NCBI GenBank assembly: GCA_963663165.1
Contig: OY760175.1
Location: 2,624,001 to 2,688,000, forward strand
DNA: 64,000 nt
Source: an uncultured Desulfospira sp.
GTDB lineage: Bacteria; Desulfobacterota; Desulfobacteria; Desulfobacterales; Desulfobacteraceae
Direction: 5' to 3'
Position 1 is the stretch's first letter; every line of letters starts with the position of its first letter. A program made the translations under genes and the position numbers. Below are positions 42,099 to 56,866 of the stretch, piece after piece. Below the pieces are notes generated by a model. It made no database searches. It worked only from the letters and a program-made list of their open reading frames with translations, and was not told the origin of the DNA.

Positions 42099-45000
42099 CT
42101 ATTGGTTATTTATTTTTGCAGCCTGGGCCAAAGAAATAAAACCGTTTACTTTTCCAACCGTTTTTTTTGCGTCATGCCCGATATGGATCAGCACCGGGAC
42201 AATGAACAGGGTAACAGGGGTGGCAAACAACTCCCCAAAGGCCAGGGATATGGCAGCCGGAATCAGGTACTGGGCCTGCTCCGATGTTTCGGACAGCAGG
42301 GGCATAAGTCCGCACACCGTGGTCAGCGTGGTTAAGACAATGGCCCGAAACCGGCTGTTTCCTGCGTTTATCAATGCCTGAAAACAGTTTGGGAAATCGT
42401 CGGTTACATCGTTGAACCGGGATAAAAGCACCAGGCTGTCATTGACCACGACGCCCGTGACAGCCAGCATGCCGAAAAAAGAGAGCACACTTAAATCAAA
42501 CCCCATGGCCCAGTGCCCGGCCACAGCGCCCACAAACCCGAATGGAATGACAGACATGATCACAAGGGGCTGCCAATAGGATTTCAAGGGTACGGCCAAA
42601 AGGGCGTAGATCAGGATCAGGATCATGGCAAGGGCTCGGATCATGCCCCCTTTCATCTCACCCATATCCTCAAGTTCGCCGGCCGCTTTGATGGTCAGCT
42701 GGGGGTAAAGCTGCTGTAACCGGGGGATGATATCCTTTTTAATGAGCTTGATTGCCTCTTCGGCGCTGATAACTTCTTTATCCAGGTTCGCCTCGACCTG
42801 GGCCACCCGCTTTTTATCCTGGCGCACAATGGCTGCCGGCACATACCCGGATTCAATGTCGGCCACCAGGGACAAGGGAACCCATTGCCCGTTCCGGGTG
42901 CGGATCCGGGTGGAAAGAAGATCCCGGATATACCGGCACCGGTCTTCCCCGTATCTGACCTTTACCTTAACCTCTTCGGTGCCCCGCTGGATGCGCTGGA
43001 TTTCAAGGCCCCCAAAGGCGTTTCCGATCTGGCCGGCAAGGTCTGCGGTGGTAAGGCCCATATGCCTGGCTTCGGGCTTGAGATGCAGCCGAAGCCTTGG
43101 GTTACCCTGGTCCAGGTCGTCCCGGATATCATGGACACCCTTGATCTTGGCAAAGTCAGCCTCAAACCGGGCCACCGCATCCGTGAGCACGGCAGAATCC
43201 CGCGCACCAAGCTCAAGCACGAATCCGCCGCCTGTTTCAAATGATCCGCTGAAGGTCAGTGTTTCCACCCCTTCCAGGGTGCCCACCCGTTTGCGCCAGC
43301 GCTTCAAGGTCTCCAGGGTGTCAAGCTGCCTTTGGCTTTCCGGCTGCAGTTCCGCGTAAATTTCTGCATTGTTGGAACCTGTGACCGCCGTCATGATCCG
43401 GGCAATGGGCGGTTGTTCCGTGTTCAACTCAGCCATGGCCTCTTTATTGAGCGCTTCTGCCTGTTTTTCAATAAAGGAGATATGGTCCGCCGTCAGATCA
43501 GACGGGGAACCGGAACGGGTTTTCAGGGTCACGGTGATGATCTGGCCAGGCACCTGGGGGAAAAAAACCGTTCTGATCCAGCCGTTTGATATCAGGCCGA
43601 TGCCGCACACGGCAACCGTGACAAGGAATACCAGGGTGGCATAACGGTGGTTAAGGGTGGTTTTAAGCATTGGTTGGTAAATGCGGGTGTTGACAAAATC
43701 CATCAGGCCCGAGGCTTTTTTCTGCACAAAGGCCCACACCCTGTGTACAACCCCTTTGGATTTTTGTGTGCCTGGTGCGTCCTGGTTCATGGAGATGGCA
43801 GCCAGGTGAGCCGGCAGCACAAGCTTGCTTTCCAGCATGGAGGCAATGACCGAAATGATCACCACCACAGAGAAACTGGCAAACAATTTGCCGATTTCAT
43901 TTTCAATGAGCAGCAGGGGATAAAAGGCCGCCACCGTGGTAAAACAGCCAAACACCGTGGCTGTGGAGACCCGGTGCACCCCTTCAATGGTGCCTGTGAC
44001 AGGATCAGGGTTTTGCTTTCTGACCTCAAACACGCTTTCGCCCACCACAATGGCGTCATCCACCAGGATGCCCAGCACAATGATCATGCCGAATGTGGTG
44101 ATATCGTTTAAAGAGTAGTTCAAAAACCGCTCGCCCATAAGGGACAAAGCCCCTGCCAGGGAGATGGGAATACCCATGGCCACCCACACCGCAAGTTTAA
44201 CATTGAGAAACAAGGCCAGCAGCACAAACACAATTAACAGCCCCTGCCAGGCATTGGAGGCCAGAAGTTTGAGCCGGTCCTTCATGTAGGTGGCCTGCTC
44301 CGCCCAGATGTCGATCTTAATGCCCCTGGGCAGACCCGGACGGATTTTTTCAATCACATCCCGGGCCACCTTGTTCACGGCCATAAGATCGCCTTTCTGT
44401 CCGGTGTAGATCAGCATGCCCACGGACGGTTTGCCCTGGAACCGTGCAAAAAAAGGTTCTGTTTCAAATCCGTCCACAACCGTTGCAATGTCTTTTACCA
44501 GAAGCTGTGTGCCGTTGCTTAAGGTACGCACACCGATATTGGAAAATTCTTCAAAGGAGAACGCTTTTTTATCCGCCCGGATCACCACCTTGCCGCTTTT
44601 GCTTTCAATGGTGCCGGTGGCGTAATCCAGGGAGGCCTGGTTAATGGCGGATGCCACCTCTTCCAGGGTCATGCCGTAGGAGCGAAGCTTGTCCATATCC
44701 ACTTCAATGCGGATTTCATAGGGTTTTTGACCAAACACCTCTATGCGGGTCAGCATGGGATGGGAAAGCAGCTCCTCTTTGACCTGCCTTGCCGTCTGTT
44801 GCAGCGTGATTTCGTCACTATCCCCATACACCTGGACGATCAGGCCCATGACATTAAACTCATCCCTGGAGACCACCGGGCGCTCGGCCCGGTCCGGCAG
44901 ATTGTAAATGCTGTCCACCCGGGACTGGATCTCATTTTGGAACCGGTCCATATCAAATTTGGGTGTTTTGCGGATGCTGACCGTGGACAGGCCTTCATAG

Positions 45001-45254
45001 GATGTGGATGAAATTTTTTTTACGCCGGGCATGCCTTCCAGGGCATTTTCAATTTTCCGGGAAACGCCCCGGTCCACCTGTTCGGCACTGGCGCCGGGAT
45101 AGGCTGTCTGTACGGTGATACTGTTCACCGGCAGGGCGGGAAACCCTTCAATGCGAATGGAAAACAAGGTGAAAAACCCTGCAATCAGCACAAGAATCAT
45201 CAACAGGTTGGCAGCCACGGGATTCCTGGTGAACCAGGCAGATAATGCATGCAT
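42099..45254 (-). CDS. RND efflux pump
   Basis: NPVAANLLM, LGILVDDAIVVGE, VVNDSLVL, RFRAIVLT. Confidence 0.93.
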   Translation of the reverse strand: MHALSAWFTRNPVAANLLMILVLIAGFFTLFSIRIEGFPALPVNSITVQTAYPGASAEQVDRGVSRKIENALEGMPGVKKISSTSYEGLSTVSIRKTPKFDMDRFQNEIQSRVDSIYNLPDRAERPVVSRDEFNVMGLIVQVYGDSDEITLQQTARQVKEELLSHPMLTRIEVFGQKPYEIRIEVDMDKLRSYGMTLEEVASAINQASLDYATGTIESKSGKVVIRADKKAFSFEEFSNIGVRTLSNGTQLLVKDIATVVDGFETEPFFARFQGKPSVGMLIYTGQKGDLMAVNKVARDVIEKIRPGLPRGIKIDIWAEQATYMKDRLKLLASNAWQGLLIVFVLLALFLNVKLAVWVAMGIPISLAGALSLMGERFLNYSLNDITTFGMIIVLGILVDDAIVVGESVFEVRKQNPDPVTGTIEGVHRVSTATVFGCFTTVAAFYPLLLIENEIGKLFASFSVVVIISVIASMLESKLVLPAHLAAISMNQDAPGTQKSKGVVHRVWAFVQKKASGLMDFVNTRIYQPMLKTTLNHRYATLVFLVTVAVCGIGLISNGWIRTVFFPQVPGQIITVTLKTRSGSPSDLTADHISFIEKQAEALNKEAMAELNTEQPPIARIMTAVTGSNNAEIYAELQPESQRQLDTLETLKRWRKRVGTLEGVETLTFSGSFETGGGFVLELGARDSAVLTDAVARFEADFAKIKGVHDIRDDLDQGNPRLRLHLKPEARHMGLTTADLAGQIGNAFGGLEIQRIQRGTEEVKVKVRYGEDRCRYIRDLLSTRIRTRNGQWVPLSLVADIESGYVPAAIVRQDKKRVAQVEANLDKEVISAEEAIKLIKKDIIPRLQQLYPQLTIKAAGELEDMGEMKGGMIRALAMILILIYALLAVPLKSYWQPLVIMSVIPFGFVGAVAGHWAMGFDLSVLSFFGMLAVTGVVVNDSLVLLSRFNDVTDDFPNCFQALINAGNSRFRAIVLTTLTTVCGLMPLLSETSEQAQYLIPAAISLAFGELFATPVTLFIVPVLIHIGHDAKKTVGKVNGFISLAQAAKINNQ

Positions 45255-45258
45255 GATG

Positions 45259-46443
45259 TTATCCTTTCTCCTTTTGTCCGGGCTGGACTAAAAGCCCTGC
45301 GGCAAAGCTTGCATTGGGTGACACGGCAACCTGTAAAGAATCCTGGCCGCTGTTTTCAGGCATATTAATGTAGACCACGCCATTGCCGTAAAATACAGGC
45401 TGTGCATGAACCGGTTTCAGCCGGTTTTGGTCATCCACAAACCAGACCACCCCCTGTTTGGTGAGTGCGGTTTCCGGCAGGCACAAAAGCCCTGTAACCT
45501 TTTGGCCAATGATTTCGGCGCGCACAAAGGCACCGGGCAAAAGGGGCGGGTTCTGGGCCATGGGGTGAGCCACCTGGAGAAACAAGGTCTGCAGCCTGGA
45601 TTCAGAATCAAGCCGTTGTCCGTTTCGCACCACCCGGGCCTGCCAGGAGACATTTTGCTGGGTGGATACCAGGCGGGCGGCAACGCTTTTGTCCGGACTG
45701 CCGGAAGACAGGTTCATGCCTAAAAGGGCCAGTTGTTCCGCAGAAACATGGATGCCCACCTCGGCTGTGTCAATGCCGTACAGGGTGAAGATCTCATCCC
45801 CGGTTAACAGGGTCTCCCCGGGATTGACATGGCGCTCAAGGATGACGCCGTCAAAGGGGGCGCAGATTTTGGTGTATGACAACCGGGTTTCGGAAAGCGC
45901 AAGTGTTTTGCCCGCGGCGTTCAGCCCTGCCCGGGCGCAGTTGAGCTGGGGCTTGCGCAGCACAAGGTCAGACGCAGGCGATCCTTTTATGCCGGAGCGC
46001 TCCCAGTTTCGCAACGCTTCTTTGGCTTCGCGTTCCTCCTTGAGCAGCTCAACCTTTGCCTGGGCCACCCGGTTTTTATCCTCGCTGACCTGGGCCTGGT
46101 AGGCGGTCTCTTCTATTTTTACAAGGAGTTCGCCTTTTTTAACCCTGACCCCTGGCTGAAGCTTTGGATTCAGGTAGACAATGGGGCCGTCCACCCGGGC
46201 TTTGATGGTGGATTGCCACAGGGGCTTTACCTCGCCAAGGGCACTGATCCGCGCAGGATAGGCAGCACCTGCCACCTTTTGAACCGTTACGGGCATGCCC
46301 GTAAGCTGCACGGCCGTGTCCTCCTGCAACTGCCCCTTGGCAGGCTTTGATTCCAGGAACACAAAAGCCCCTGCCGTGCACACCAGGGCGGTCACAATAA
46401 AAACCGCCCATTTCCCCGTAAGTATTTGAATTATTTTTTTCAT
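45259..46443 (-). CDS. RND membrane-fusion protein
   Basis: GVRVKKGELL, ICAPFDG, LLPGAFV; start at MKKIIQ. Confidence 0.88.
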   Translation of the reverse strand: MKKIIQILTGKWAVFIVTALVCTAGAFVFLESKPAKGQLQEDTAVQLTGMPVTVQKVAGAAYPARISALGEVKPLWQSTIKARVDGPIVYLNPKLQPGVRVKKGELLVKIEETAYQAQVSEDKNRVAQAKVELLKEEREAKEALRNWERSGIKGSPASDLVLRKPQLNCARAGLNAAGKTLALSETRLSYTKICAPFDGVILERHVNPGETLLTGDEIFTLYGIDTAEVGIHVSAEQLALLGMNLSSGSPDKSVAARLVSTQQNVSWQARVVRNGQRLDSESRLQTLFLQVAHPMAQNPPLLPGAFVRAEIIGQKVTGLLCLPETALTKQGVVWFVDDQNRLKPVHAQPVFYGNGVVYINMPENSGQDSLQVAVSPNASFAAGLLVQPGQKEKG

Positions 46444-46515
46444 ATATAAACTCCTTGTAAACAATCAGCTTTTGTCAAATTTTCACAGCAACGCCGCAGC
46501 CGGGTGAGTCCGGGT

Positions 46516-47922
46516 TCAAATGCTTTTGCCTATGGCGATTGCCAGATCCACCCGGTTGCTCAGCCGGTCGGCCCGGGCCTGGTTCAGTTGCAGTTTCACC
46601 GAGATCTCCTGCTCTTTGGCAATGAGCAGCGTCTGGATATTGTCCAGGCCCTGGCGATACCGGTCCACAAAGTAACGGCTGCTGTTTTCAGACTCAATGG
46701 AAGCGATTTCAAGGGCCTTTGTCTGATTTGCCAGCTCCTTTTCCAGGGTGAGTGCATTTTCTATTTCGGCAAATGCCTGCAGCACAATGGCATGAAGGTC
46801 CTGGATGGCGGCATCCGCCTCAAGGTGACCGGCCCGGGCTTCATCCCGCAGGCGTCCCCCCTCAAACAGCGGCTGGAACACAGATCCTAAAAGTCCCCAA
46901 CAGGTTGTGGCACTGCCGATATCCGACAGCCGGGTCCCGGACCGGAACAGTTCGCCGGACAGGGTGACCCCGGGAAGCCTGGCCTTGTCCGCAGCCCGGG
47001 CCTGATTTCGGGCAGCGTCAACCCGGGCAAGGCCTGCCCGGATATCCGGCCGGTTTAAAAGAACCGCTGCCGGCGTATCCAGCGCCGGCAGGGCAAGGGC
47101 GGGCCAGTCCCGGCCCCGGGACAATTGTCCCTGTGGATATCGGCCAAGAAGGACTTCAAGACAGCGAATAGAATTGGAAAGATCTGCCTCTCTGGCGCTT
47201 AGATCTGCTTTGGCCACCTGGGTCCGGGTTCTGGCTGCGGCATATTCGTCCAGGCTGCCAATGCCGTCCTGGTACCGGTGGATCAAAATATCTTCAATCT
47301 GCTGTAAAACCGAAATACGCTGTGTTTCAATGGCTTTTGCCCGGCGGGCCGACACCTGCCGTATCCATGCCTGGATCACCCGGGCAGCCAGAAGGTCCCG
47401 GGCCTTTTGAAAATCCTGCTCTTTGGCCTGGACCTCCTGGCTTGCGGCCTGGTATTGGTCAGCCAGCCGGCCCCACAGATCGATTTCCCAGCTCACATTG
47501 GCTGTGATTTTATGGCTGGTCTGGGTGTCGCGTTCAAATGTAGTGTAATTGTACTCCTGGTTGCTTTTTCCACTGGAAAATCCTGCAAAAAGCTTTGGAA
47601 GTCGCCCGGATGCAGGGCCTGAAAGAAGATACTGTGCGGACCCAAGCCGGAATGCCGCAGCTTTTATATCCGGGTTGTTTTCCAGGGCTTCGTCCACCAG
47701 GCTGCGAAGCTTGTTGGAATCAATGATGTCCAGAAGCCCTGCGGTAATGGGCAGGGCTTCCGGGCCAGAAGATGTGCCGAATGTGCCGGGAATATCCCGG
47801 GGAAGCACAGCCGGAGCCTTGGAGAAAGTTGAAGCGCAGCCCTGCAGCCACAATGCCGGGATAATAATTGCCAGCCCAAGGAGTAATCGTATTTTATGTA
47901 TCGTGCTTTTCATCCTGATCAT
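46516..47922 (-). CDS. RND outer-membrane lipoprotein
   Basis: Lipobox LQGC; NNPDIKAA, SWEIDLWG, RPDIRA. Confidence 0.9.
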   Translation of the reverse strand: MIRMKSTIHKIRLLLGLAIIIPALWLQGCASTFSKAPAVLPRDIPGTFGTSSGPEALPITAGLLDIIDSNKLRSLVDEALENNPDIKAAAFRLGSAQYLLSGPASGRLPKLFAGFSSGKSNQEYNYTTFERDTQTSHKITANVSWEIDLWGRLADQYQAASQEVQAKEQDFQKARDLLAARVIQAWIRQVSARRAKAIETQRISVLQQIEDILIHRYQDGIGSLDEYAAARTRTQVAKADLSAREADLSNSIRCLEVLLGRYPQGQLSRGRDWPALALPALDTPAAVLLNRPDIRAGLARVDAARNQARAADKARLPGVTLSGELFRSGTRLSDIGSATTCWGLLGSVFQPLFEGGRLRDEARAGHLEADAAIQDLHAIVLQAFAEIENALTLEKELANQTKALEIASIESENSSRYFVDRYRQGLDNIQTLLIAKEQEISVKLQLNQARADRLSNRVDLAIAIGKSI

Positions 47923-48321
47923 TGCTCACCCCAAAACGCTTAGTCCATGAAACAGCATCAAACCCGCAAAAAAAAACTGCCCTTTAAACGATCCCATCAT
48001 TTATCTTCCTTGGTGCCTCCTTTGTTGCTTTTTTAAAATCAATGATCGGATAGTAAAGGATTTTAAAACACAGGTCTGTCTGCTTTGTGTACCCAATTGT
48101 ACCCAATTGTACACAGCCCTTTGCGCTGCAAAACCAGGGGTACAAAACCGGCCGCTTTTTACAGCAGCCCAATACACAAATCACAGCCGGATGTTATATA
48201 ATTATGAAAATGCAATGTGCGTTAAGAAGAAAACCTATCTTGCGATTTTTGGGGGGGTGCTAAGATTCAAAAAATGTAACGCGGATACGCCAAATCAGCT
48301 ACAAAATAATATAACGGGAAG

Positions 48322-48393
48322 ATATCCCGCCGCTTTACCCCGCCAATAAAATATATAAACCTTACCTCGCTTACCCCGCAGTTATCCCGCCGC
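48322..48393. repeat. Five 9-bp direct repeats near the left end of the element
   Basis: ATATCCCGC, TTACCCCGC, TTACCTCGC, TTACCCCGC, TTATCCCGC. Confidence 0.65.
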
Positions 48394-48455
48394 GAATTTT
48401 TTCGAAAAAAGCTTTGCCAATCTATTTGGAAGAAGTCAATACTTCCTTGATAAAA

Positions 48456-48550
48456 AAGGCTCGAAGCTGCAACTTCGAGCCTTCAATGTAGACATCCGAG
48501 TAGGTTACGGAAGCCACACCACCGTTTTTATCTAACCACGGCTTCCGTAA
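48456..48550 (+). promoter_or_regulatory. Structured leader: two perfect 11-bp hairpins
   Basis: AAGGCTCGAAG/CTTCGAGCCTT (48456-48483) and TTACGGAAGCC/GGCTTCCGTAA (48505-48550). Confidence 0.55.
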
Positions 48551-48568
48551 TTTAGCAAGAGCGGAAGC

Positions 48569-48958
48569 ATGGAAATCGTTTTATTAAAACGTATCGAGTG
48601 TAAGCGATGTTTCCAAATTTTCTATGTGTGCCGCAGTTGCTGGCGGGGGCAGGCATATTGCTGTCAAGAATGCCGCCAGGAGGCCCGCAAAGAAGCGCAC
48701 TGCAAAGCTCAAAAAAAATATCGACAAACGCCAAAAGGTAAAGAGGCCCACCGTCGTCAAGAAAAAAACAAAAGATTACGTCAAGCTGAAAAAACCATGG
48801 ATGATACATCTACTATACCCGGTGTAACCCATGATAGTGTCTCTCCCAAGCCATTATGTTCCGGCCCCTGTTGCCATTTTTGTGGGAAAATTGGTTGGGT
48901 TGTAGAGCATTTTCCCTGGCGCGGATATGCAAAACGACCTGTAAGGGCCAATCAATGA
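48569..48958 (+). CDS. Cys-rich basic (zinc-finger-like) protein, transposon accessory
   Basis: CKRC..CRSC..YCCQEC, basic helix, CHFC. Confidence 0.7.
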   Translation: MEIVLLKRIECKRCFQIFYVCRSCWRGQAYCCQECRQEARKEAHCKAQKKYRQTPKGKEAHRRQEKNKRLRQAEKTMDDTSTIPGVTHDSVSPKPLCSGPCCHFCGKIGWVVEHFPWRGYAKRPVRANQ

Positions 48959-48967
48959 AACATCTTA

Positions 48968-49372
48968 ATGGAGGATAAGACAATGAAAAAAGAAATATTG
49001 ACAGGCCATTGCAACAAAATGAAAAACAGATTTTCATCCCGGGAGCTATTTAAACTGAGAAACGATATCCCTGTGGATATGCTGATCCGTGACCATTTAC
49101 AGATTCCATCCAAAATCAGGGATGGTGTTTTCCGGTTTTTATGTCCTTTGTGCAATGAGTTTCAAACCGCTGTAAATCCAGCCACCAATCTGGCCAGGTG
49201 TTTTCGGTGTGAGAAGAATTTCAACACCATTGATCTGGTCATGGAAGTCAAGGGATATGGATTCAGGGACAGTGTATTTTTTTTGAAAGAACTGGATGCG
49301 GTCTCCTATGTCCCGGCAAATGTGTTGACGTCTCTTGCCACCGGTATCGGTCAACCCTGGCCTGGGAAGTAA
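48968..49372 (+). CDS. Stand-alone CHC2-type (primase zinc-binding-like) protein
   Basis: FLCPLC...VNPATNLARCFRCEKNFNTIDLVM..KGYGFRDSV; no TOPRIM domain. Confidence 0.75.
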   Translation: MEDKTMKKEILTGHCNKMKNRFSSRELFKLRNDIPVDMLIRDHLQIPSKIRDGVFRFLCPLCNEFQTAVNPATNLARCFRCEKNFNTIDLVMEVKGYGFRDSVFFLKELDAVSYVPANVLTSLATGIGQPWPGK

Positions 49373-49374
49373 AG

Positions 49375-49929
49375 ATGAAACGGCTGCTTCAACTGGAGAC
49401 CCTTATTGCCCGTAATCAGGAGAGTTTCTATAAGATCGGTCAGGCGTTAAAAGAAATCCGTGACAGCCGCCTGTACAAACTGGCCCTGTTTGAGACATTT
49501 GAAGCATATACCAGGGAACGGTGGGATATGGGCAAGTCCCATGCATACCGCCTGATCAAATCTTATGAAGTGATCTATAATTTGTCCCCAATTGGGGACA
49601 AAACACCTGCCAATGAATCCCAGGTCCGGCCTCTTGCTCAATTGGACCCCCTGGACCAGCGCAACACCTGGAAGGCAATCATAGACAACGGTATTGAGTT
49701 AACCGCACGGAACATCAAAAAATTTGTAGAGGCCCAAAAAATACCCCCGGAGAACAAACCGGATTTGGCGGAACGGATTTCGGCTGAATACATGGCAGCC
49801 GTACATGCAATGATTGAACAGGTGCGGGTGGCCCAGCATGATCATTGGCAGCAAACGTCCCGGCAGGCTGCATTGTTGTGGCACAGGGTGATCCGCGAAA
49901 AAATTTTATCAAAAGGGGCAAGACAATGA
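49375..49929 (+). CDS. Helical DNA-binding-like accessory protein
   Basis: IGQALKEIRDSRLY..TFEAY..ERW..KSHAYRLI, NESQVRPL; ATGA overlap with the transposase gene. Confidence 0.65.
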   Translation: MKRLLQLETLIARNQESFYKIGQALKEIRDSRLYKLALFETFEAYTRERWDMGKSHAYRLIKSYEVIYNLSPIGDKTPANESQVRPLAQLDPLDQRNTWKAIIDNGIELTARNIKKFVEAQKIPPENKPDLAERISAEYMAAVHAMIEQVRVAQHDHWQQTSRQAALLWHRVIREKILSKGARQ

Positions 49930-51593
49930 AGAACCTGAGCCTTGATGACCGTTTTTATTTGCTGCTCCATAAAAAAATCATGAATAAAACCGGATCAGCC
50001 AAAAGAAGGTCCAAAAAATATTACAAAGACCAGTACAGGAAAACCGGCATTATCCCGACGCCCCTTCTACTGGTTGAAAAAGGGATTATGGACGGCCGCA
50101 AATGCAGCGGCCGGCCCCGGTCCATAGATGAACAAACCAAAAGGCGGTTTATCGAAATGGTCAAGGCCTCCTGTGACCCGTCATCCCAGGGGTTTATTTT
50201 TATTACCCGAAAAGCCAGAACCATTAAAAATTACCACTATTGGCTTGAAAGAGAATTGGGAAAAACCATCAGCCTTCCGGCACTCAGGCGATGTGCCCAA
50301 AGGGAAGGCCTTAAATTTTACCTGGAAAAAGAAGATTTTGAAGAAAATGCCCCGGTGAAAAACGCATTCAAGCCTGTTCCGGTGTTTGGCCTGATACAGG
50401 TAGACGGTTGCAACTTTCGATATTTAAAAATCAAAAATGAGGCTGGCCACTGGCAAAAACCCCAAGTCATTGAAACGTTTGATACCGGTTCCCGGTACAT
50501 GTTTGAACTTGATGCCTATTTCGATGAAAGCAGCTTAAGCTCAGTGGATTTGTTTAACCGGTTTTTGCTTTCCACCCCATTTCCCCAGAAGAAAGTCCGG
50601 TTCAGGCCGGATAACGCCACAGGATTTGTAAATCTCAAAAGAGTCATCAACGCCTTGAATATAAAACATTCCGTTCCCGGAGGATTTTATCTGGCGCCGG
50701 ATTTTTCAAGGGTAAGTGCCCCCAGGGACAAGGCCCATCTTGAGTCCTCCCATCGCAGTCTTCATAATTTTGAAATCCGAATCATCAAGGCGTTTGAAGA
50801 CAGGATTGTAAAGACCGTTCCAGGGGTTATCTTCAATAATAAGAAAAAAGAAAAAATCACTGTGACACTCCTTGATATTACACTCCGGGATTTAAGACAC
50901 AGCCCCCTGATAAAAGAATACCGCCACGAACATAACCACACCAAACATTATTTTAGCGAAAATGGAAAGATCAGTGCATGGGTTCCGGCACAAAAGCTGG
51001 AAGAATTTTTATCAAGGCAAGCCGATATCCTTACCTTTTCACCGGATGAGGTGCAGGAATATATGAAGTATGGCTACAGGAAAATAAAAGCCACTGTATC
51101 TAACAAAAGAACCATTCGCCATGACAACCGGATCTATTGTGTAACCAGTGGTACAGACCGGTTCAGCAGGCATAAAAGTACACCGGTGCAAATATCAGTA
51201 TATAAGGGCAAGCTGTTTATTTTTGAACGGGGGGAAGACGGCATACTATTGGGCGAAGCCCTTGCCACAAAGCCGTTTGACAAACCACCTGACCCAAAAT
51301 CTGTACCAGTGGCCCCGGATGAACTCGACATGATGATCATTTTTCTGGAAAAGCACAACATGGCCGTCGACCGGCGAGTCTTAATTGAAGCTTATCATAG
51401 CGGCCTCACTCTGGCCCGGGCTCAACAAGTGCTTCATCATAATCAATCCAGGTACAAGAATTATATGAAAAAGATGCGGCAACCTGAAACACAGAAAAAG
51501 CAGGCGGTATTCAATGCCTTTATGCTTGACTGCCGGAAATTGATCAATACAAACCATGTGGCCACGTATGCATCCTGCGGAGATTTAACATGA
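49926..51593 (+). CDS. DDE (rve/Mu-like) transposase
   Basis: LIQVDG, RFRPDNA and PRDKAHLESSH give a D-D-E triad; N-terminal GRPR; start at MKNLSL. Confidence 0.8.
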   Translation: MKNLSLDDRFYLLLHKKIMNKTGSAKRRSKKYYKDQYRKTGIIPTPLLLVEKGIMDGRKCSGRPRSIDEQTKRRFIEMVKASCDPSSQGFIFITRKARTIKNYHYWLERELGKTISLPALRRCAQREGLKFYLEKEDFEENAPVKNAFKPVPVFGLIQVDGCNFRYLKIKNEAGHWQKPQVIETFDTGSRYMFELDAYFDESSLSSVDLFNRFLLSTPFPQKKVRFRPDNATGFVNLKRVINALNIKHSVPGGFYLAPDFSRVSAPRDKAHLESSHRSLHNFEIRIIKAFEDRIVKTVPGVIFNNKKKEKITVTLLDITLRDLRHSPLIKEYRHEHNHTKHYFSENGKISAWVPAQKLEEFLSRQADILTFSPDEVQEYMKYGYRKIKATVSNKRTIRHDNRIYCVTSGTDRFSRHKSTPVQISVYKGKLFIFERGEDGILLGEALATKPFDKPPDPKSVPVAPDELDMMIIFLEKHNMAVDRRVLIEAYHSGLTLARAQQVLHHNQSRYKNYMKKMRQPETQKKQAVFNAFMLDCRKLINTNHVATYASCGDLT

Positions 51594-52252
51594 AGGCAGA
51601 TTTTATCAGTGACAAACGAAGGGTATCATACCTGAGCGCCACTTATAGCCGGATCTACCGGGGCCGGAGCGTACTCATTGAGGGAGATTTTGGAGCGGGA
51701 AAAACCAGGTTTTTAAAACTGCTTCGTCCCAAAAAACTTCATGCCGTATGGGTAGAGTCCCTGTTCAACATACACGAAACCCTGGCATCCATACTCAAAG
51801 AATTGAACTATGACACCACAGCCACATATCGCAGAACTCCCCAGTACCTGAAAATGATCTGCAACCTGTCCAACTGCTTTATTATTATTGATGAGGCCAA
51901 TGATCTGGATACCAGGGTCTGGCCATATCTTAAGCGGATCATTGATGCCGGTGTTCCTATTGTTTTTGCAGGGCTTCCAAAGGTCAGGACCTATTTGATT
52001 CGCAATCACCCTGATATCCTCAGCCGGTTGAAAACCCTGATTTTATATCCCATAGAGGTTGAGGGCTTTATCGAACAATATAAAGATATCCAGCAGGAAG
52101 CCGTTGAGCAAATTTATATGGCGGTCAAAGGCGACATGCGTAAATTTAAAGAAATCTGTACTGACTGCCGGGACAAGGCAAAGGAATTGAACCACCAATT
52201 TGTTGACATTAATCTTGCCCTGGAGTTTATATCTGACCTTCCTCCCCAGTAA
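51590..52252 (+). CDS. AAA ATPase transposition helper (MuB/TniB/IstB-like role)
   Basis: Walker A GDFGAGKT, Walker B IIIDEA; ATGA-coupled to the transposase gene. Confidence 0.82.
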   Translation: MKADFISDKRRVSYLSATYSRIYRGRSVLIEGDFGAGKTRFLKLLRPKKLHAVWVESLFNIHETLASILKELNYDTTATYRRTPQYLKMICNLSNCFIIIDEANDLDTRVWPYLKRIIDAGVPIVFAGLPKVRTYLIRNHPDILSRLKTLILYPIEVEGFIEQYKDIQQEAVEQIYMAVKGDMRKFKEICTDCRDKAKELNHQFVDINLALEFISDLPPQ

Positions 52253-52273
52253 TCCCTGAAAAGTAGATCCGTA

Positions 52274-52313
52274 AAAACAGGCCACTTCTGATTTAACCGG
52301 AAGATGGCCTGTT
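52274..52313 (+). terminator. Hairpin after the ATPase gene
   Basis: AAACAGGCCA...TGGCCTGTTT. Confidence 0.5.
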
Positions 52314-52774
52314 TATATTTTGACCTTAATTGATTAACGCAATTTTTCGCCTGGATATACCTGTGAAAATCAGGGAACCACAGATTGTTTTTGAATCTTT
52401 TTTGAACCGTTACATTAATTTGCAACTTTCAATATTTTTGACTGCCAACCTAACCTACTAAATTTATATGAAAAACCATTTCTTTTTTGAAATAATGAAC
52501 GAAAAAAAATCCGTTACATTATTTGAATGTGAGCAGGCGGATCTTACGCAAAGTGGTTTCTATCGGCTTACAATCATGGGGGACATCGGGAATACGCCGC
52601 TGACGGTTACCGCTATGACGGGCAACGGGAAGTGTGACCATCCCTTTTTGCTCAAGTTTTCTCAGCATGCTTCGACAGGCCATGTCCTTGAGCAGACCTT
52701 TTTCCGTGCGCCAATCCCAGCGAGCACACAATTCTTTGGATAAACGAGTGCGGTGCCAGGCGGGATTGTCGTTA

Positions 52775-54155
52775 GGGATGTGGTAAAATTAAAACCCACA
52801 ATTCATTCCTCATAGCATGGAATATCAACAGCCCATTTTTCAATCCCTGGAATCCGAATAATTTTGTTTTCTATATTATTCACGGCGGACTTGACCAAAC
52901 GTACCCCTGTCGGGTAAACACCTTTGATTAATTTGACGACAGGATTTTCTCCTTTCCATGTCATTGTTCGACATAGACCGAGAACCTTTTCAATTTTGTT
53001 CAGCAATTCGCCTTTCCAATGATTTTCCAAAACACCCCAAACTCGCTCTATTGGGTTGTATTTACTGTGGTACGGGGGATAGTACACCAAACTAATATTT
53101 ACAAATGCTGATTTGGCAAAGTCCACGAGGCGACTAATGAATTGGCTCCTTCGGCTACTATTTTCCGGCCCATTATCAAGATTGATCACCAGTGTATGTG
53201 GGGCGAATCTTGCGTTCAAAGAAGGCCAGAGTGATTCCAGCGCATCAATCATGAAATCAGAGGTGATGTTGCTTTCAGTGAAGTACATATAATTTTCATC
53301 CAGAGCAGGTATGTTGATACCGAAAAGTTTCAAAAGGGAATCGGGTTTAAAATCATGGTCCGCCGCTTTAAGATTGCAACGACTATATCCGCCTCGGGAA
53401 TAAGGCCCTATTTTAATAGTGGCTTTTGCGTCCATTGAGATACGTAAAACGCCATCTGTTTCATCGGCTAGTTGGTTTGTCCTATGCACATATTCAAAAA
53501 TGATGTCTGTTTCAGGAATTTTTTTTTTACCTTGGCTTTGGCGACCTTCTTCAGTTTAAAACCCAATTTATTCATTATGGTGGATAGAGTCCGTACTGTT
53601 GGCATATTCTCAGGGTCATATCCCATGTCGTCAACTAATCGACGGAATACTTCATTCGCAGATATTGGGGAATATAAATTCTGGGTACGGAATGTAGGAT
53701 CAGTCTGACATATAGGGTTTACAATACGAGTTATGTCCTCTTTTAAATTCGGAAAATGTTCTAAACACGATTTCCGGCCTCGTCCGGAAAAATTATCAAC
53801 ACAGGTAACTCCGCTTTCTATTTCCCGTCGCCCTTTGATTATTGTTTTCCGATCCCAACCCAGTTCTCTTTCAGCCTTTAGTTGTCCGCCGTGCCCCATA
53901 AGGGAGACAACGCGTGCCATGAATTGGCGCCGTTCATGGCCTTTTAATTTGCTTCGAGTGGTATTCAGAAAATCCTTTAGTGGTGGCGTTAATTCCGATA
54001 TAGTTTTGGGTAAATTGTGCTTAGAATGATCAAACATGGTCCTCCTGTATTTTTTATGTAATCTTCCATGTTGACCATAAACTATCGATTCCATGTTGTC
54101 TATAGAAATCAGAATTCAGACTATGGAATTGTGGATATTAATTTTTCTGAGGCCC
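52775..54155 (-). mobile_element. ISAzo13-family insertion sequence
   Basis: GGG-starting imperfect 30-bp IRs (22/30); TTA target duplication at 52772-52774 and 54156-54158. Confidence 0.88.
52803..54037 (-). CDS. ISAzo13 transposase, two ORFs joined by a -1 shift at an A10 run (53519-53528)
   Basis: QTDPTFRT; the shift restores KKIPETDIIF; ISMDAKA, DNGPENS, YPPYHSKYNPIERVW. Confidence 0.85.
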
Positions 54156-54357
54156 TTAATCAAATGGCGTATCGTTTGTATATCAACTTCTGAAAATTCA
54201 CGTCCTTGAATGGTTAAAGTCCTGCTCATGCAAATCTATATAACCTTTCATGAGCCAGGAGTCCAGCTTTTTTTGGGAGGGCAGAGTATTCAATGCAGCA
54301 TGAAAAACGGAAAAATTGGATACATGTCAGTTCATGCCACTAAATGGGATTGCACCC

Positions 54358-54570
54358 CAGCGCAGGTGCAAAAACTGCCACGATCTATACATGCCGGATT
54401 CCCGCCATTTGAAACGACAAAAGTTCTGCAAAAAACCGGAATGCAAAGGCGCCAGCAAAAAACACAGTCAGCAAAAATGGCTGAATAAACCAAAAAACCG
54501 GGATTATTTCTCAGGATCAGAACATGTGACCCGTGTCCGGCAATGGCGCCAGGATAATCCCGGTTATAAG
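54358..54570 (+). pseudogene. Fragment of a Cys-rich mobile-element accessory gene hit by the IS
   Basis: RRCKNCH..PDSRH..RQKFC..PEC..ASKKHSQQKW...NRDYF..VRQWRQDNPGY; begins exactly at the IS end. Confidence 0.55.
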
Positions 54571-54711
54571 GGTCATGGGGGTCAAACCTGGTCATGGGGG
54601 TCAAACCTTGATTATTTCCTTTTAACATTAGCCGCATCTATCATATCCAAGCCTGCGCATAATGCTATAATCAAGGTTTGACCCCTTTCCCTCTGCTCCC
54701 TTTCCCTCTGC
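54571..54711. repeat. REP/REPIN-like inverted repeat with flanking tandem duplications
   Basis: Perfect 19-bp IR GGGGTCAAACCTTGATTAT (54597-54615 and 54667-54685); GGTCATGGGGGTCAAACCT x2 and CCCTTTCCCTCTGC x2. Confidence 0.75.
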
Positions 54712-54905
54712 CAGACGCAGGCCCATTGAATAGTTTGTAAGCAGGAAAACCCGGTAGCGCAGTTTACGCGTTGCGCCGATCAGATGTTCCACCTCGCCGG
54801 GAGTCAAAATATCCGGGATGGTTTTAACTTTGGGCGGCTTGACAATATTCAACCAATTCCATTCCTTTTTTAAAACGAATTTCCAGAAATGCTGAAGTCC
54901 CAGAC
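54703..54905 (-). pseudogene. Tyrosine recombinase internal fragment
   Basis: GLQHFWKFVL..W..IVKPP...IPDILTPGEV..LI...YSMGLRLAE. Confidence 0.7.
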
Positions 54906-54998
54906 GATGAATTAATATGGGGTTCCAACAATTCTCTTGCTACCCATAGGACCTGTTGCAACTATCAGCACCGTGATAAACCCGCCAGCCGCCAATCT

Positions 54999-55063: not shown

Positions 55064-56197
55064 ATGGAACGATATCTCACAAAATATATTAAGGAAGATT
55101 TAGATAAAAAAATCATCCTGCTGACTGGGCCACGCCAAACCGGAAAAACAACGCTTTCAAAAATGTTGGGGAATGATTTTGATTATTTCAATTATGACAA
55201 TGTTGATGACAGAATAGGCCTTAAAGAAAGATCCTGGGACAGGTCAAAGCCCCTGGTTATCTTTGATGAACTGCACAAGCAGAAAAATTGGAAATCATGG
55301 CTTAAGGGAATTTATGACAAGGAGGGCATCCCGCCGTCACTGCTCGTTACAGGCAGCGCCAGGCTAGATACGTATAAAAAAGTTGGGGATTCCCTGGCAG
55401 GGCGATTTTTTCAATTTAGGTTGCACCCTTTGGATCTTAAAGAAATCAACACTTATTTGAAACCAGAAGACCCTGAAGCTGAACTAGACAAACTATTATC
55501 GATTGGCGGCTTTCCTGAACCTTTTTTAAATGGAACAAACCGTTTTTATAACCGTTGGAAAAGATCTCATCTTGATATCATTTTAAAACAGGATCTCATT
55601 GACCTTGAGAATGTTCAGCAAATCACTCAGATTGAAACCTTGATTCAATTGTTAAAACACCGGGTGGGAAGCCCCGTTTCATACAGCTCCCTGGCCCAGG
55701 ATCTGCAATGTTCAGACAAAACTGTAAAAAGGTGGTTGACGATACTTGAAAACATGTATGTACTTTTTAAGGTACCGCCCTTTCACAAAAATATCGCCAG
55801 GGCTATTCAGAAAGCGCCTAAATTTTACTTTTATGATACGGGGCAGGTCTTAGGTGAACATGGGATTAAGCTGGAAAATGCAGTAGCCTGCGCCATTCAA
55901 AAAGAGTTGCATTTCCGGGAGGATTGCCTGGGAGAAGAAGGAAAACTGTATTATGTGAAAAATAAGGACGGCAAAGAGATTGATTTCTGTATTTCAAAAA
56001 ACAACACCCCTTCACTGTTAGTGGAGGTTAAGTGGAACGACAATAACTTGAGTCCAAATTTTGATTTATTTAAAAAATTCTTCCCTGAAATTAAAATGAT
56101 CCAAGTTTCTAAGAAACTTAACAGGGAAAAGACTTTTCCAAACGGGGCAGCAATCAGGCTTGCATCAAAATGGTTGTCAAAATTAACCTTTTTCTGA
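55064..56197 (+). CDS. AAA_14/DUF4143 ATPase
   Basis: GPRQTGKT, IFDE, VTGS, GGFPE, KFYFYDTG, EIDF..EVK. Confidence 0.9.
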   Translation: MERYLTKYIKEDLDKKIILLTGPRQTGKTTLSKMLGNDFDYFNYDNVDDRIGLKERSWDRSKPLVIFDELHKQKNWKSWLKGIYDKEGIPPSLLVTGSARLDTYKKVGDSLAGRFFQFRLHPLDLKEINTYLKPEDPEAELDKLLSIGGFPEPFLNGTNRFYNRWKRSHLDIILKQDLIDLENVQQITQIETLIQLLKHRVGSPVSYSSLAQDLQCSDKTVKRWLTILENMYVLFKVPPFHKNIARAIQKAPKFYFYDTGQVLGEHGIKLENAVACAIQKELHFREDCLGEEGKLYYVKNKDGKEIDFCISKNNTPSLLVEVKWNDNNLSPNFDLFKKFFPEIKMIQVSKKLNREKTFPNGAAIRLASKWLSKLTFF

Positions 56198-56205
56198 AAA
56201 GTGCT

Positions 56206-56255
56206 TTTCAACAAACCAAATACACACGGGCAAGCCGGTGATGTTGGAATTAGCT
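56206..56255 (+). other. Degenerate attC-like site
   Basis: TTTCAAC-AAACCA-AATACACACGG...GCCGGTGATG-TTGGA-ATTAGCT; R' lacks the G of GTT. Confidence 0.35.
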
Positions 56256-56306
56256 TTTAAATCAAATCTCTTGACGAACGCATCAAAAAAATGCATATAG
56301 ATACAT

Positions 56307-56507
56307 ATGAGAACTACACTTAACATAGACGACAAAATCTTGGAGAAAGCCGCGATTTTAACAGGGATCAAAGAAAAAACATCCTTGGTTCATCTTGGCC
56401 TTGAAGCGTTAATTGCACTTGAGAGCAGTAAACGCCTTGCAATGCTTGGTGGTACAGAAGAGGCTCTAAAGAACATTCCCCGTAGAAAATCCACAGGGGA
56501 AGCATGA
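56307..56507 (+). CDS. vapB: VapB antitoxin
   Basis: MRTTLNIDD; ATGA overlap with the PIN toxin gene. Confidence 0.88.
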   Translation: MRTTLNIDDKILEKAAILTGIKEKTSLVHLGLEALIALESSKRLAMLGGTEEALKNIPRRKSTGEA

Positions 56508-56866
56508 TCCTTGTAGACACGTCGGTATGGATTGATCATTTCCGAAAAAGTAACGCAAACCTGCAATCTCTCCTTATGAAAGGACGTGTTGTATGCCATG
56601 AGCTTATTATTGGCGAATTGGTTTGTGGAAATTTTCAAAATCGAAAAGAAATTATAAGCTTATTACAAGCTTTGCCCCAAGTCCCTCAAATAAGTTTTGA
56701 CGAGTATTTATATTTTGTCGAGAAAAGGAGTCTTTTCGGCAAAGGTATAGGATTCATTGATATTCATTTGTTGGCTTCGGCAAGATTGTCACAATCGAAG
56801 CTTTGGACTCTTGATAAAAGGCTTAATAAACAGGGTGTTGACCTTGAAGTAGATTATAAAATTTAA
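56504..56866 (+). CDS. vapC: VapC PIN-domain toxin
   Basis: MILVDTSVWID, IIGEL, IDIHLLAS, LWTLD. Confidence 0.92.
   Translation: MILVDTSVWIDHFRKSNANLQSLLMKGRVVCHELIIGELVCGNFQNRKEIISLLQALPQVPQISFDEYLYFVEKRSLFGKGIGFIDIHLLASARLSQSKLWTLDKRLNKQGVDLEVDYKI

Follow-up and report, generated by a model that had tools for sequence, protein, structure and literature searches.

In Mu-like phages, in insertion sequences (ISs) of the IS21 family, and in Tn7-like elements, Tn5053 and type V-K CRISPR-associated transposons (CASTs), a DDE transposase is paired with an AAA ATPase. The target duplication of Mu is 5 bp, and Tn552 is a non-viral element with a Mu-related transposase and ATPase pair, TG..CA ends, a duplication of approximately 6 bp and a resolvase. 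PMC10122671 describes for IS21 the paired end sites L1/L2 and R1/R2 and a DDE and AAA pair, and for Mu a left end whose first two sites are far apart, the long spacer containing an HU site. The present analysis concerns an element of 4,278 bp (48258..52535, TG..CA ends, five open reading frames (ORFs) between the ends) in a 64,000-bp stretch of the genome of an uncultured Desulfospira sp., hereafter the window; the source genome as a whole is designated G000. This element is real, complete and recently active; it works like the cores of Mu, IS21 and Tn7, belongs to none of them by membership tests and represents a new family-level variant. The reading to which we incline slightly is that of a transposon of IS size that moved recently, has the A and B genes of a Mu-like phage lineage at its core and likely descends from such a phage; in it, a zinc-binding domain (ZBD) likely binds repeats just inside the left end and would thereby help to start host replication.

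Boundaries, target sites and end architecture

The five ORFs are located on one strand, the ORF3/4 and ORF4/5 pairs overlapping in ATGA, in agreement with the tightly coupled operon proposed in the initial annotation; three front genes (ORF1–ORF3) precede the genes of the transposase (ORF4) and the ATPase (ORF5). The terminal inverted repeats (IRs) described in that annotation were confirmed: the left one (site L1, starting with TG; 48258..48281, plus strand) and the right one (site R1, ending with CA; 52512..52535, minus strand) are 24 nt long and match at 21 of 24 positions, they recur at conserved positions and in identical copies, and no other TG-anchored pair of such quality spaced 1–10 kb was found in the window or in any of 20 shuffles. 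The element boundaries are proved by the six copies of the 4,278-bp sequence in G000, which are 100% identical; five additional copies represent two subfamilies at approximately 77% identity. Exact 6-bp target duplications were found at four of the six identical copies and were absent from one further identical copy and from the copy in the window (flanks GGGGGG and GGCGGA), for which the empty site was sought by its flank in three relatives and not found. Loose ends at 48258 in runs X7 and X8 carry left flanks foreign to the six G000 copies, and the element occupies further sites in other samples.

Across genomes, 54 sites were surveyed for target duplication: 28 had 6 bp, two had 5 bp, 20 had none and four lacked flanks. 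Thus, 28 of the 30 duplicated sites differ from the 5 bp of Mu. Many of the 20 sites without duplication are on contigs barely exceeding the element, and their flanks may stem from different copies. According to PMC11708052, absent duplications are often caused by recombination or adjacent deletion. At one junction in G000, a sister element and a copy stand end to end, right end against left end, with 2 bp (CA) in between; the duplication expected for that copy would finish with these two bases. This is the sole clear case in 318 loci. With its 2-bp spacer, this single event resembles IS21 tandems and, more generally, the end joining of IS21 or IS30, and together with the missing duplications it fits replicative or copy-out routes. 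A right–left joint (circle) was not found in the contigs of eight runs, and the junction pattern had no exact match in metagenome contigs, rare forms being lost from contigs, so that absence is not implied by either result.

Flanks collected from other copies, as the initial annotation had proposed, gave the 6-bp duplication and a target bias, the fourth position being G in 23 of 28 6-mers (p = 4e-10) and the centre CG in 11, TG in six and GG in four. The targets were asymmetric (G at position 4 in 23 and C at position 3 in 14 of the 28; discordant 12 vs. 3, p = 0.035). This biased asymmetry, the presence of small operon-coupled zinc and helix-turn-helix (HTH) proteins beside a TnsC-like ATPase, and the fact that ORF3 never leaves the A–B pair could be taken to mean that the accessory proteins select the target like TniQ, TnsD or TnsE in Tn7, for example by guiding the ATPase to forks or other mobile DNA. 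Such a role is improbable, however, given that no common attachment site was found among the 28 mutually unrelated targets and that orientation relative to the replichore was unbiased in G000 (six leading and five lagging copies), which also separates the element from Tn7-like elements, Tn5053 and CASTs and led to the rejection of a TnsE-like lagging-strand bias. Flanks were located in repeated DNA at nine of 22 element ends compared with 26–80% for other G000 elements; a preference for other mobile elements as target, at which the flanks had hinted, was rejected, since other families of this IS-rich genome nest equally often. Moreover, homologues of ORF1 and ORF2 also ride on tyrosine-recombinase elements, and because the same genes serve recombinases without an ATPase, a TniQ-style selector role is unlikely for these two proteins, an argument that does not cover ORF3. 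Of the accessory roles initially suggested, target selection by ORF1 and ORF2 was not supported; regulation or replisome recruitment remain, with new evidence for a cis site.

In 18 elements, each end has two sites, one at position 13 and an inner one, at a spacing of 32–35 bp on the left (17 of 18 elements at one mismatch) and 101–104 bp on the right (18 of 18). In the window, these inner transposase sites are L2 (48303..48317, plus strand, 35 bp inside the left end) and R2 (52407..52421, minus strand, 104 bp inside the right end); the extra copies of the core motif noted earlier at 48307 and 52407 are present, and their positions are conserved in the 18 elements. TG..CA ends, two sites per end and a DDE and AAA operon are common to the element and IS21, and the one end with a long spacer between its first two sites recalls the left end of Mu. 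Midway between R1 and R2, an IHF-like site (52451..52463, minus strand; 7/9 match) was found, which recurs at a fixed place in the right spacer (mean 6.6/9 over 18 elements, equalled in none of 2000 shuffles). A promoter scan gave results at chance level. By analogy with MuA, IstA and TnsB, a transposase tetramer would bind L1/L2 and R1/R2 and nick after each CA, and the ATPase would capture the target and license strand transfer, two steps that are jointly very probable; it is reasonably likely that a bending protein (IHF or HU) would loop the 80-bp R1–R2 spacer. Since no TnsA-like nuclease is present, there is a good probability that replication would complete the event, through either a cointegrate or copy-out.

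Transposase, ATPase and kinship with Mu-like phages

ORF4 (49926..51593, plus strand, 555 aa) had no transposase model match in Pfam, NCBIfam or PHROGs, save for a weak N-terminal IS630 hit far below the cut-off, no match among PLSDB plasmids or INPHARED phages, and no solved structure that could be reached by sequence; 162 matches at E ≤ 0.001 were found among 1.84 billion representatives. The earlier DDE transposase call, although given by no profile library, was borne out by the conservation of the triad and by the fold. Residues D160, D229 and E273 are invariant across 67 sequences and aligned with the triad of annotated MuA, and the structure model (predicted local distance difference test (pLDDT) 81) had its best Foldseek rows in TnsB and MuA (E-values from 1e-13 to 1e-11), with Z-scores by VIA of 15.3 for TnsB and 13.8 for both MuA and IstA. 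ORF5 (51590..52252, plus strand, 220 aa) is a MuB/TnsC-type AAA+ ATPase, in line with the short AAA ATPase expected: it matched AAA_22 and the phage DNA transposition protein family phrog_296 (E-value = 1.4e-11), and its AAA+ motifs are intact, with Walker A K38, Walker B D101 and E102, and the arginine finger and sensor II (R146, R184) invariant in 23 sequences; a weak TniB match was obtained for six of 23 ATPases.

The TnsB-type fold (the top fold matches) and a TnsC-like ATPase are common to the element and to Tn7-like elements, Tn5053 and type V-K CASTs; none of the five proteins of the element matched TniQ models, and a genome-wide TniQ search in G000 was empty, its control likewise being without a match. 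As regards IS21, some elements of this family in G000 share the front genes, with a full ParB, whereas the ATPase of the studied element is of the AAA_22/MuB type and not DnaC-like, and five genes are present instead of two. The IS21 transposase model NF033546 gave no ORF4 hit at E ≤ 0.1, and the IS21 helper model NF038214 gave no ORF5 hit, whereas the IS21 controls from G000 scored 216.8 bits (cut-off 160) and 225.4 bits (above cut-off), respectively. Compared with Tn552, to which it is likened by the generally known features of the latter, the element has no resolvase match among its five ORFs, carries no cargo and has three accessory genes. The proposal of a distinct, complete DDE and AAA element outside IS21 and Tn7 was thus upheld by the failed membership tests, but the kinship with Mu-like phages had been missed.

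ORF3, the transposase and the ATPase are akin to proteins of Mu-like phages. The MuA-type fold with aligned D, D and E residues and a MuB-family ATPase (phrog_296) are common to both, and the element is 33–38% identical to the A proteins and 29–45% identical to the B proteins of the nearest phages (L095, L096, L019, L094 and L097–L102). The A protein of L095 matched phrog_310, and its B protein is 45% identical to ORF5. Upstream of A, phages L095 and L096 encode ORF3 homologues (35% identity over 117 aa, E-value = 8e-12; full-length match 137 bits), and in protein P0141, whose C end also appears rearranged, an ORF3-like domain is fused to the transposase. Distant transposase relatives with known context (approximately 30–40% identity) were A proteins of Mu-like prophages or phages at all 10 loci; in all eight viral contigs, the transposase was found among terminase, portal or head genes, most contigs also containing a repressor and B, and the two loci in bacterial contigs, L094 and L019, are early regions of the Mu type. 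It was also observed that the A proteins of this group of phages escape or barely meet the PHROG transposase family and often have an N-terminal HTH and a low-complexity linker, reaching up to approximately 650 aa. The element, of only 4.3 kb, has no repressor, head, tail or lysis genes, and its transposase lacks the N-terminal HTH and the linker by which most phage relatives are extended. Close relatives (50–84%) were found mainly in Desulfobacterota records; 12 of 61 relatives gave a match (one being prophage L019), compared with only four of 301 genomes sampled from the whole phylum, a count that includes one marginal match. Among the ORF4 matches, there were also approximately 20 distant transposase proteins without context, and other non-viral lineages may exist.

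Phylogenetic trees were rooted on MuA/MuB of phage VW-6B and on three ExeA-type elements. The elements formed a single clade (100/100) among the phage rows, and the phages were monophyletic in none of 200 bootstraps. The direction from phage to transposon is probable. Weighing against it, the rejection of phage monophyly by the approximately unbiased (AU) test is not firm (p = 0.049 for the ATPase in a quick tree and p = 0.083 for A and B in a careful tree), the outgroups are on long branches, and an end sequence shared by the phages and the element was sought and not found.

Exchangeable front genes and the left-end repeats

The 129-aa product of ORF1 (48569..48958, plus strand; slot 1, type A) is a swappable Cys-rich protein with a basic helix for which no family was found in Pfam, NCBIfam or PHROGs. 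ORF2 (48968..49372, with a conserved start at 49019, plus strand; slot 2) encodes a stand-alone primase-type ZBD (PF01807 above the cut-off). The initial annotation had called it a stand-alone CHC2 finger; the stand-alone zinc domain was retained, whereas the CHC2 ligand set was not, the four ligands being Cys (Cys4) and invariant in 14 sequences; the host DnaG has CPFH. Its length is 117–134 aa, comprising the ZBD alone, and it is stand-alone in all aligned relatives, without the joined Toprim polymerase and helicase-binding domains of DnaG-type primase. ORF3 (49375..49929, plus strand, 184 aa) encodes a putative ParB/KorB-type HTH protein (precomputed PF01672 match) with an all-helical model, the matches being restricted to the HTH part and the N-terminal CTPase domain lacking; the fold likeness is at modest Z, with ParB, KorB, Spo0J and SopB at Z 6–7 over approximately 100 residues, Raf1 first at Z 8.7, and Foldseek E-values of at least 0.035. 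The name "DNA methylase" borne by ORF3 relatives in databases was rejected on the basis of this helical HTH model. It is fairly likely that ORF3 would act as a DNA-binding regulator inherited together with A and B. All five genes are under purifying selection, the ratio of nonsynonymous to synonymous substitution rates (dN/dS) being 0.33 for ORF1, 0.08–0.17 for ORF2, 0.09–0.11 for ORF3 and 0.12–0.15 for the transposase.

The order ORF3–A–B is constant in the family, ORF3 preceding the transposase wherever the upstream DNA is intact, and slots 1 and 2 vary. Both the IRs and the three front genes, whose retention in relatives the initial annotation had made a point of checking, were kept in 36 non-redundant elements, which comprised seven with the window's combination of type A and ZBD, 20 with type B and ZBD, four with a DUF6431-like gene and ZBD, one with type D and ZBD, and four with type A and a winged-helix protein, the alternative in slot 2 (HTH_36; weak hits to phage replication initiators). 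The three accessory genes are therefore not a fixed set of this element, as had been assumed, since the exact combination occurs in seven of 36 and homologues of ORF1 and ORF2 are found in IS21 and RIT elements of G000. In the IS21-family element of G000 (C1:12489-17027, L317; five copies), Cys-rich (type A, 60% identical to ORF1), winged-helix and full ParB genes are located ahead of istA and istB; all five copies are transcribed against the leading strand, a small number. RIT elements of G000, with three tyrosine recombinases unrelated to the transposase of the element, contain a ZBD gene 70% identical to ORF2 (four copies) or type A and winged-helix genes (eight copies); in the RIT families of G000 at C1:7842-11917, at 2833228-2837356 and near 2717921 (four, eight and four copies), the slot genes precede the recombinases. 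The same slot genes are also present in DUF6431-DDE-ExeA elements, which have an IS481-like DDE enzyme and an ExeA-type ATPase, an unrelated recombinase, and served as an outgroup in the tree. With both the RIT and the DUF6431-DDE-ExeA elements of the same hosts, the element shares TAYCCCGC repeats as well.

Free exchange of slots 1 and 2, together with the L1/L2 and R1/R2 ends and the DDE and AAA pair known for IS21 from PMC10122671, would also suit an ordinary IS21-like transporter element with front genes as passengers without a role in mobility. We consider this very improbable: both IS21 models miss the element yet score true G000 IS21 above the cut-off, no intact relative without the three-slot layout was found, purifying selection on the front genes matches that on the transposase in strength, and a cis repeat follows the ZBD.

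This cis repeat is represented in the window by five TAYCCCGC-type repeats (48323, 48336, 48363, 48372 and 48383; 48323..48390, plus strand) around an A/T-rich spacer, directly inside L2, which are putative ORF2 sites. In a repeat survey of 180 rows reduced to 62 at 90% identity (loci without a slot-1 hit, a downstream hit or a leader were skipped), clusters of at least three repeats were found in 36 of 39 ZBD elements and in none of 23 winged-helix elements, with a background of seven in 4000 random windows; L026 (leader of only 3 nt) and L037 (insertion in the leader) were scored as misses. Whichever of the four slot-1 types is present, the repeats go with the ZBD; of four separate contrasts between ZBD and winged helix on the transposase tree, they follow it in three to four, never the reverse. 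Because the motif was defined on the family and the leader and gene can move jointly, the telling cases are elements outside the family. Clusters were present in all seven out-of-family RIT elements; of the four DUF6431-DDE-ExeA elements with the left end in view, three have repeats there, at a distance of 3 kb from the ZBD gene (L297, L298 and L300, but not L302; this end is out of view in L296, L299 and L301). In IS21-type elements with the ZBD gene after istB, the repeats were just inside the right end in six of 11 distinct assessable elements (L303/L304, L305, L309, L310, L311 and L312; negative L306, L307, L313, L314 and L315; L308 is cut short). In every case, the C-rich strand runs from the nearest terminus towards the interior of the element. 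In the leaders of winged-helix elements (L043, L071, and IS21 and RIT of G000), a T-rich tract was observed in place of the C-rich repeats, possibly as a site for the winged-helix protein.

These distributions suggest that ORF2 likely recognizes the repeats. A fork that moved into the element after Mu-type strand transfer would use the C-rich strand as its lagging template, the strand read by primase, and ORF2 could load or re-aim the host primase on this inward-reading strand, a step to which we give somewhat less than even weight. In PMC6163395, which also cites a study entitled for primase subunits that work in trans, the ZBD of DnaG is described as mediating sequence recognition on the template; owing to this property and to the initiator-like winged-helix substitute, a start of host replication is slightly favoured over regulation. 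Several facts weigh against a replication role for the ZBD and its repeats. The four independent contrasts are too few for significance (p = 0.125), the motif was defined on the family's own ZBD members, which makes 32 rows partly circular, and the leader and slot-2 gene can swap as a single piece. No cluster of three repeats was seen in five IS21-type elements with a terminal ZBD, and a single evolutionary event may account for the right-end location in the others. Furthermore, the 8-bp repeat exceeds the trinucleotides read by primases, and in type-B elements the repeats occupy the sole room for a promoter.

A portable control unit that leaves replication untouched, in which ORF2 would bind the repeats as an operator or shield the end from the transposase, ORF1 would act via a leader hairpin and ORF3 would be a KorB-like repressor, is a possible explanation held with clearly less than even confidence. 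It is consistent with the placing of the repeats, which in the element family and in RIT and DUF6431-ExeA elements lie after the end and ahead of the first gene, with the likeness of the ORF3 fold to ParB/KorB DNA-binding domains, with the structured leader of ORF1 and with the suitability of an expression-only regulator for unrelated recombinases, whereas the IS21-type elements with the ZBD after istB have inward-facing repeats at the right end, not upstream of the operon, and both slot-2 alternatives derive from replication-initiation proteins (PF01807 for one; HTH_36 and weak phage replication-initiator hits for the other). The leader contains an 11-bp hairpin or palindrome (48456..48483, plus strand), which accompanies ORF1-type genes regardless of the host element (22 of 25 type-A leaders compared with five of 70 others); this stem is 97% paired, with changes on both sides, and could be either a hairpin in RNA or a palindrome in DNA. 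A second stem upstream of ORF1 (48507..48548, plus strand) had 84% of cells paired in 19 leaders, with a fold z of −4.6 in the window. No Rfam match was obtained for the leader, and an alternative helix hiding the ribosome-binding site was rejected, being no better than in shuffles. Whether ORF1 would regulate expression via the leader hairpin is, in our assessment, evenly balanced.

The start of host replication from the left-end repeats can be extended, tentatively and with clearly less than even confidence, to a portable replication adaptor: the stand-alone primase ZBD would read its own C-rich repeats on the exposed single strand and lend its specificity in trans to the host primase, starting the replication that completes movement in Mu-like, IS21, IS481-like/ExeA and RIT elements, and would here have been captured by the A–B module of a Mu-like phage that had shed its virion genes. 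A copy-out route needing replication is proposed for tyrosine-recombinase SE elements in PMC10214605, where RIT movement is listed as untested.

Surroundings of the element and significance

Immediately to the right of the element (52536-54358) is the remainder of a multi-copy IS of approximately 2.5 kb, the upstream part of which is missing at the junction; this remainder is interrupted by an ISAzo13-family IS with a split transposase (52774-54156), and the loss would fit either recombination between copies or an adjacent deletion produced by the element's left end. At 54358-54913, the nested mobile DNA continues with what is left of a Cys-rich gene of the RIT type (79% identity with the RIT copy at C1:7985 of G000) and, after it, a tyrosine-recombinase fragment; next come an AAA_14/DUF4143 ATPase and a small gene pair resembling, by eye, a VapBC toxin–antitoxin module (55064-56866). 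On the left, the upstream region of an efflux-type operon (42099-47922; outer-membrane channel, membrane-fusion protein and RND-like transporter, by eye) abuts the left end of the element, and short tandem TGTACCCAAT repeats with a related palindrome are located outside the element, 110–170 bp to its left (48085-48150).

The literature search, with subscription journals, ISfinder and TnCentral outside its scope, returned no description of the element or of the cassette, and the zinc-domain and repeat module shared across element classes is undescribed; the TnsC collection that accompanies PMC10293859 may nevertheless include these ATPases without a name. The element is a compact natural Mu-type system without virion genes that connects, in a living form, transposable phages with elements of IS size, and its transposase belongs to a clade missed by current profile libraries. 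The pair of a protein and its putative site, namely, the primase-type zinc domain and the end repeats, is common to four unrelated recombination chemistries and is testable. How host replication takes over the intermediates of replicative or copy-out elements is a long-standing question, which in this family could be approached through the manipulation of one gene and one 70-bp site.

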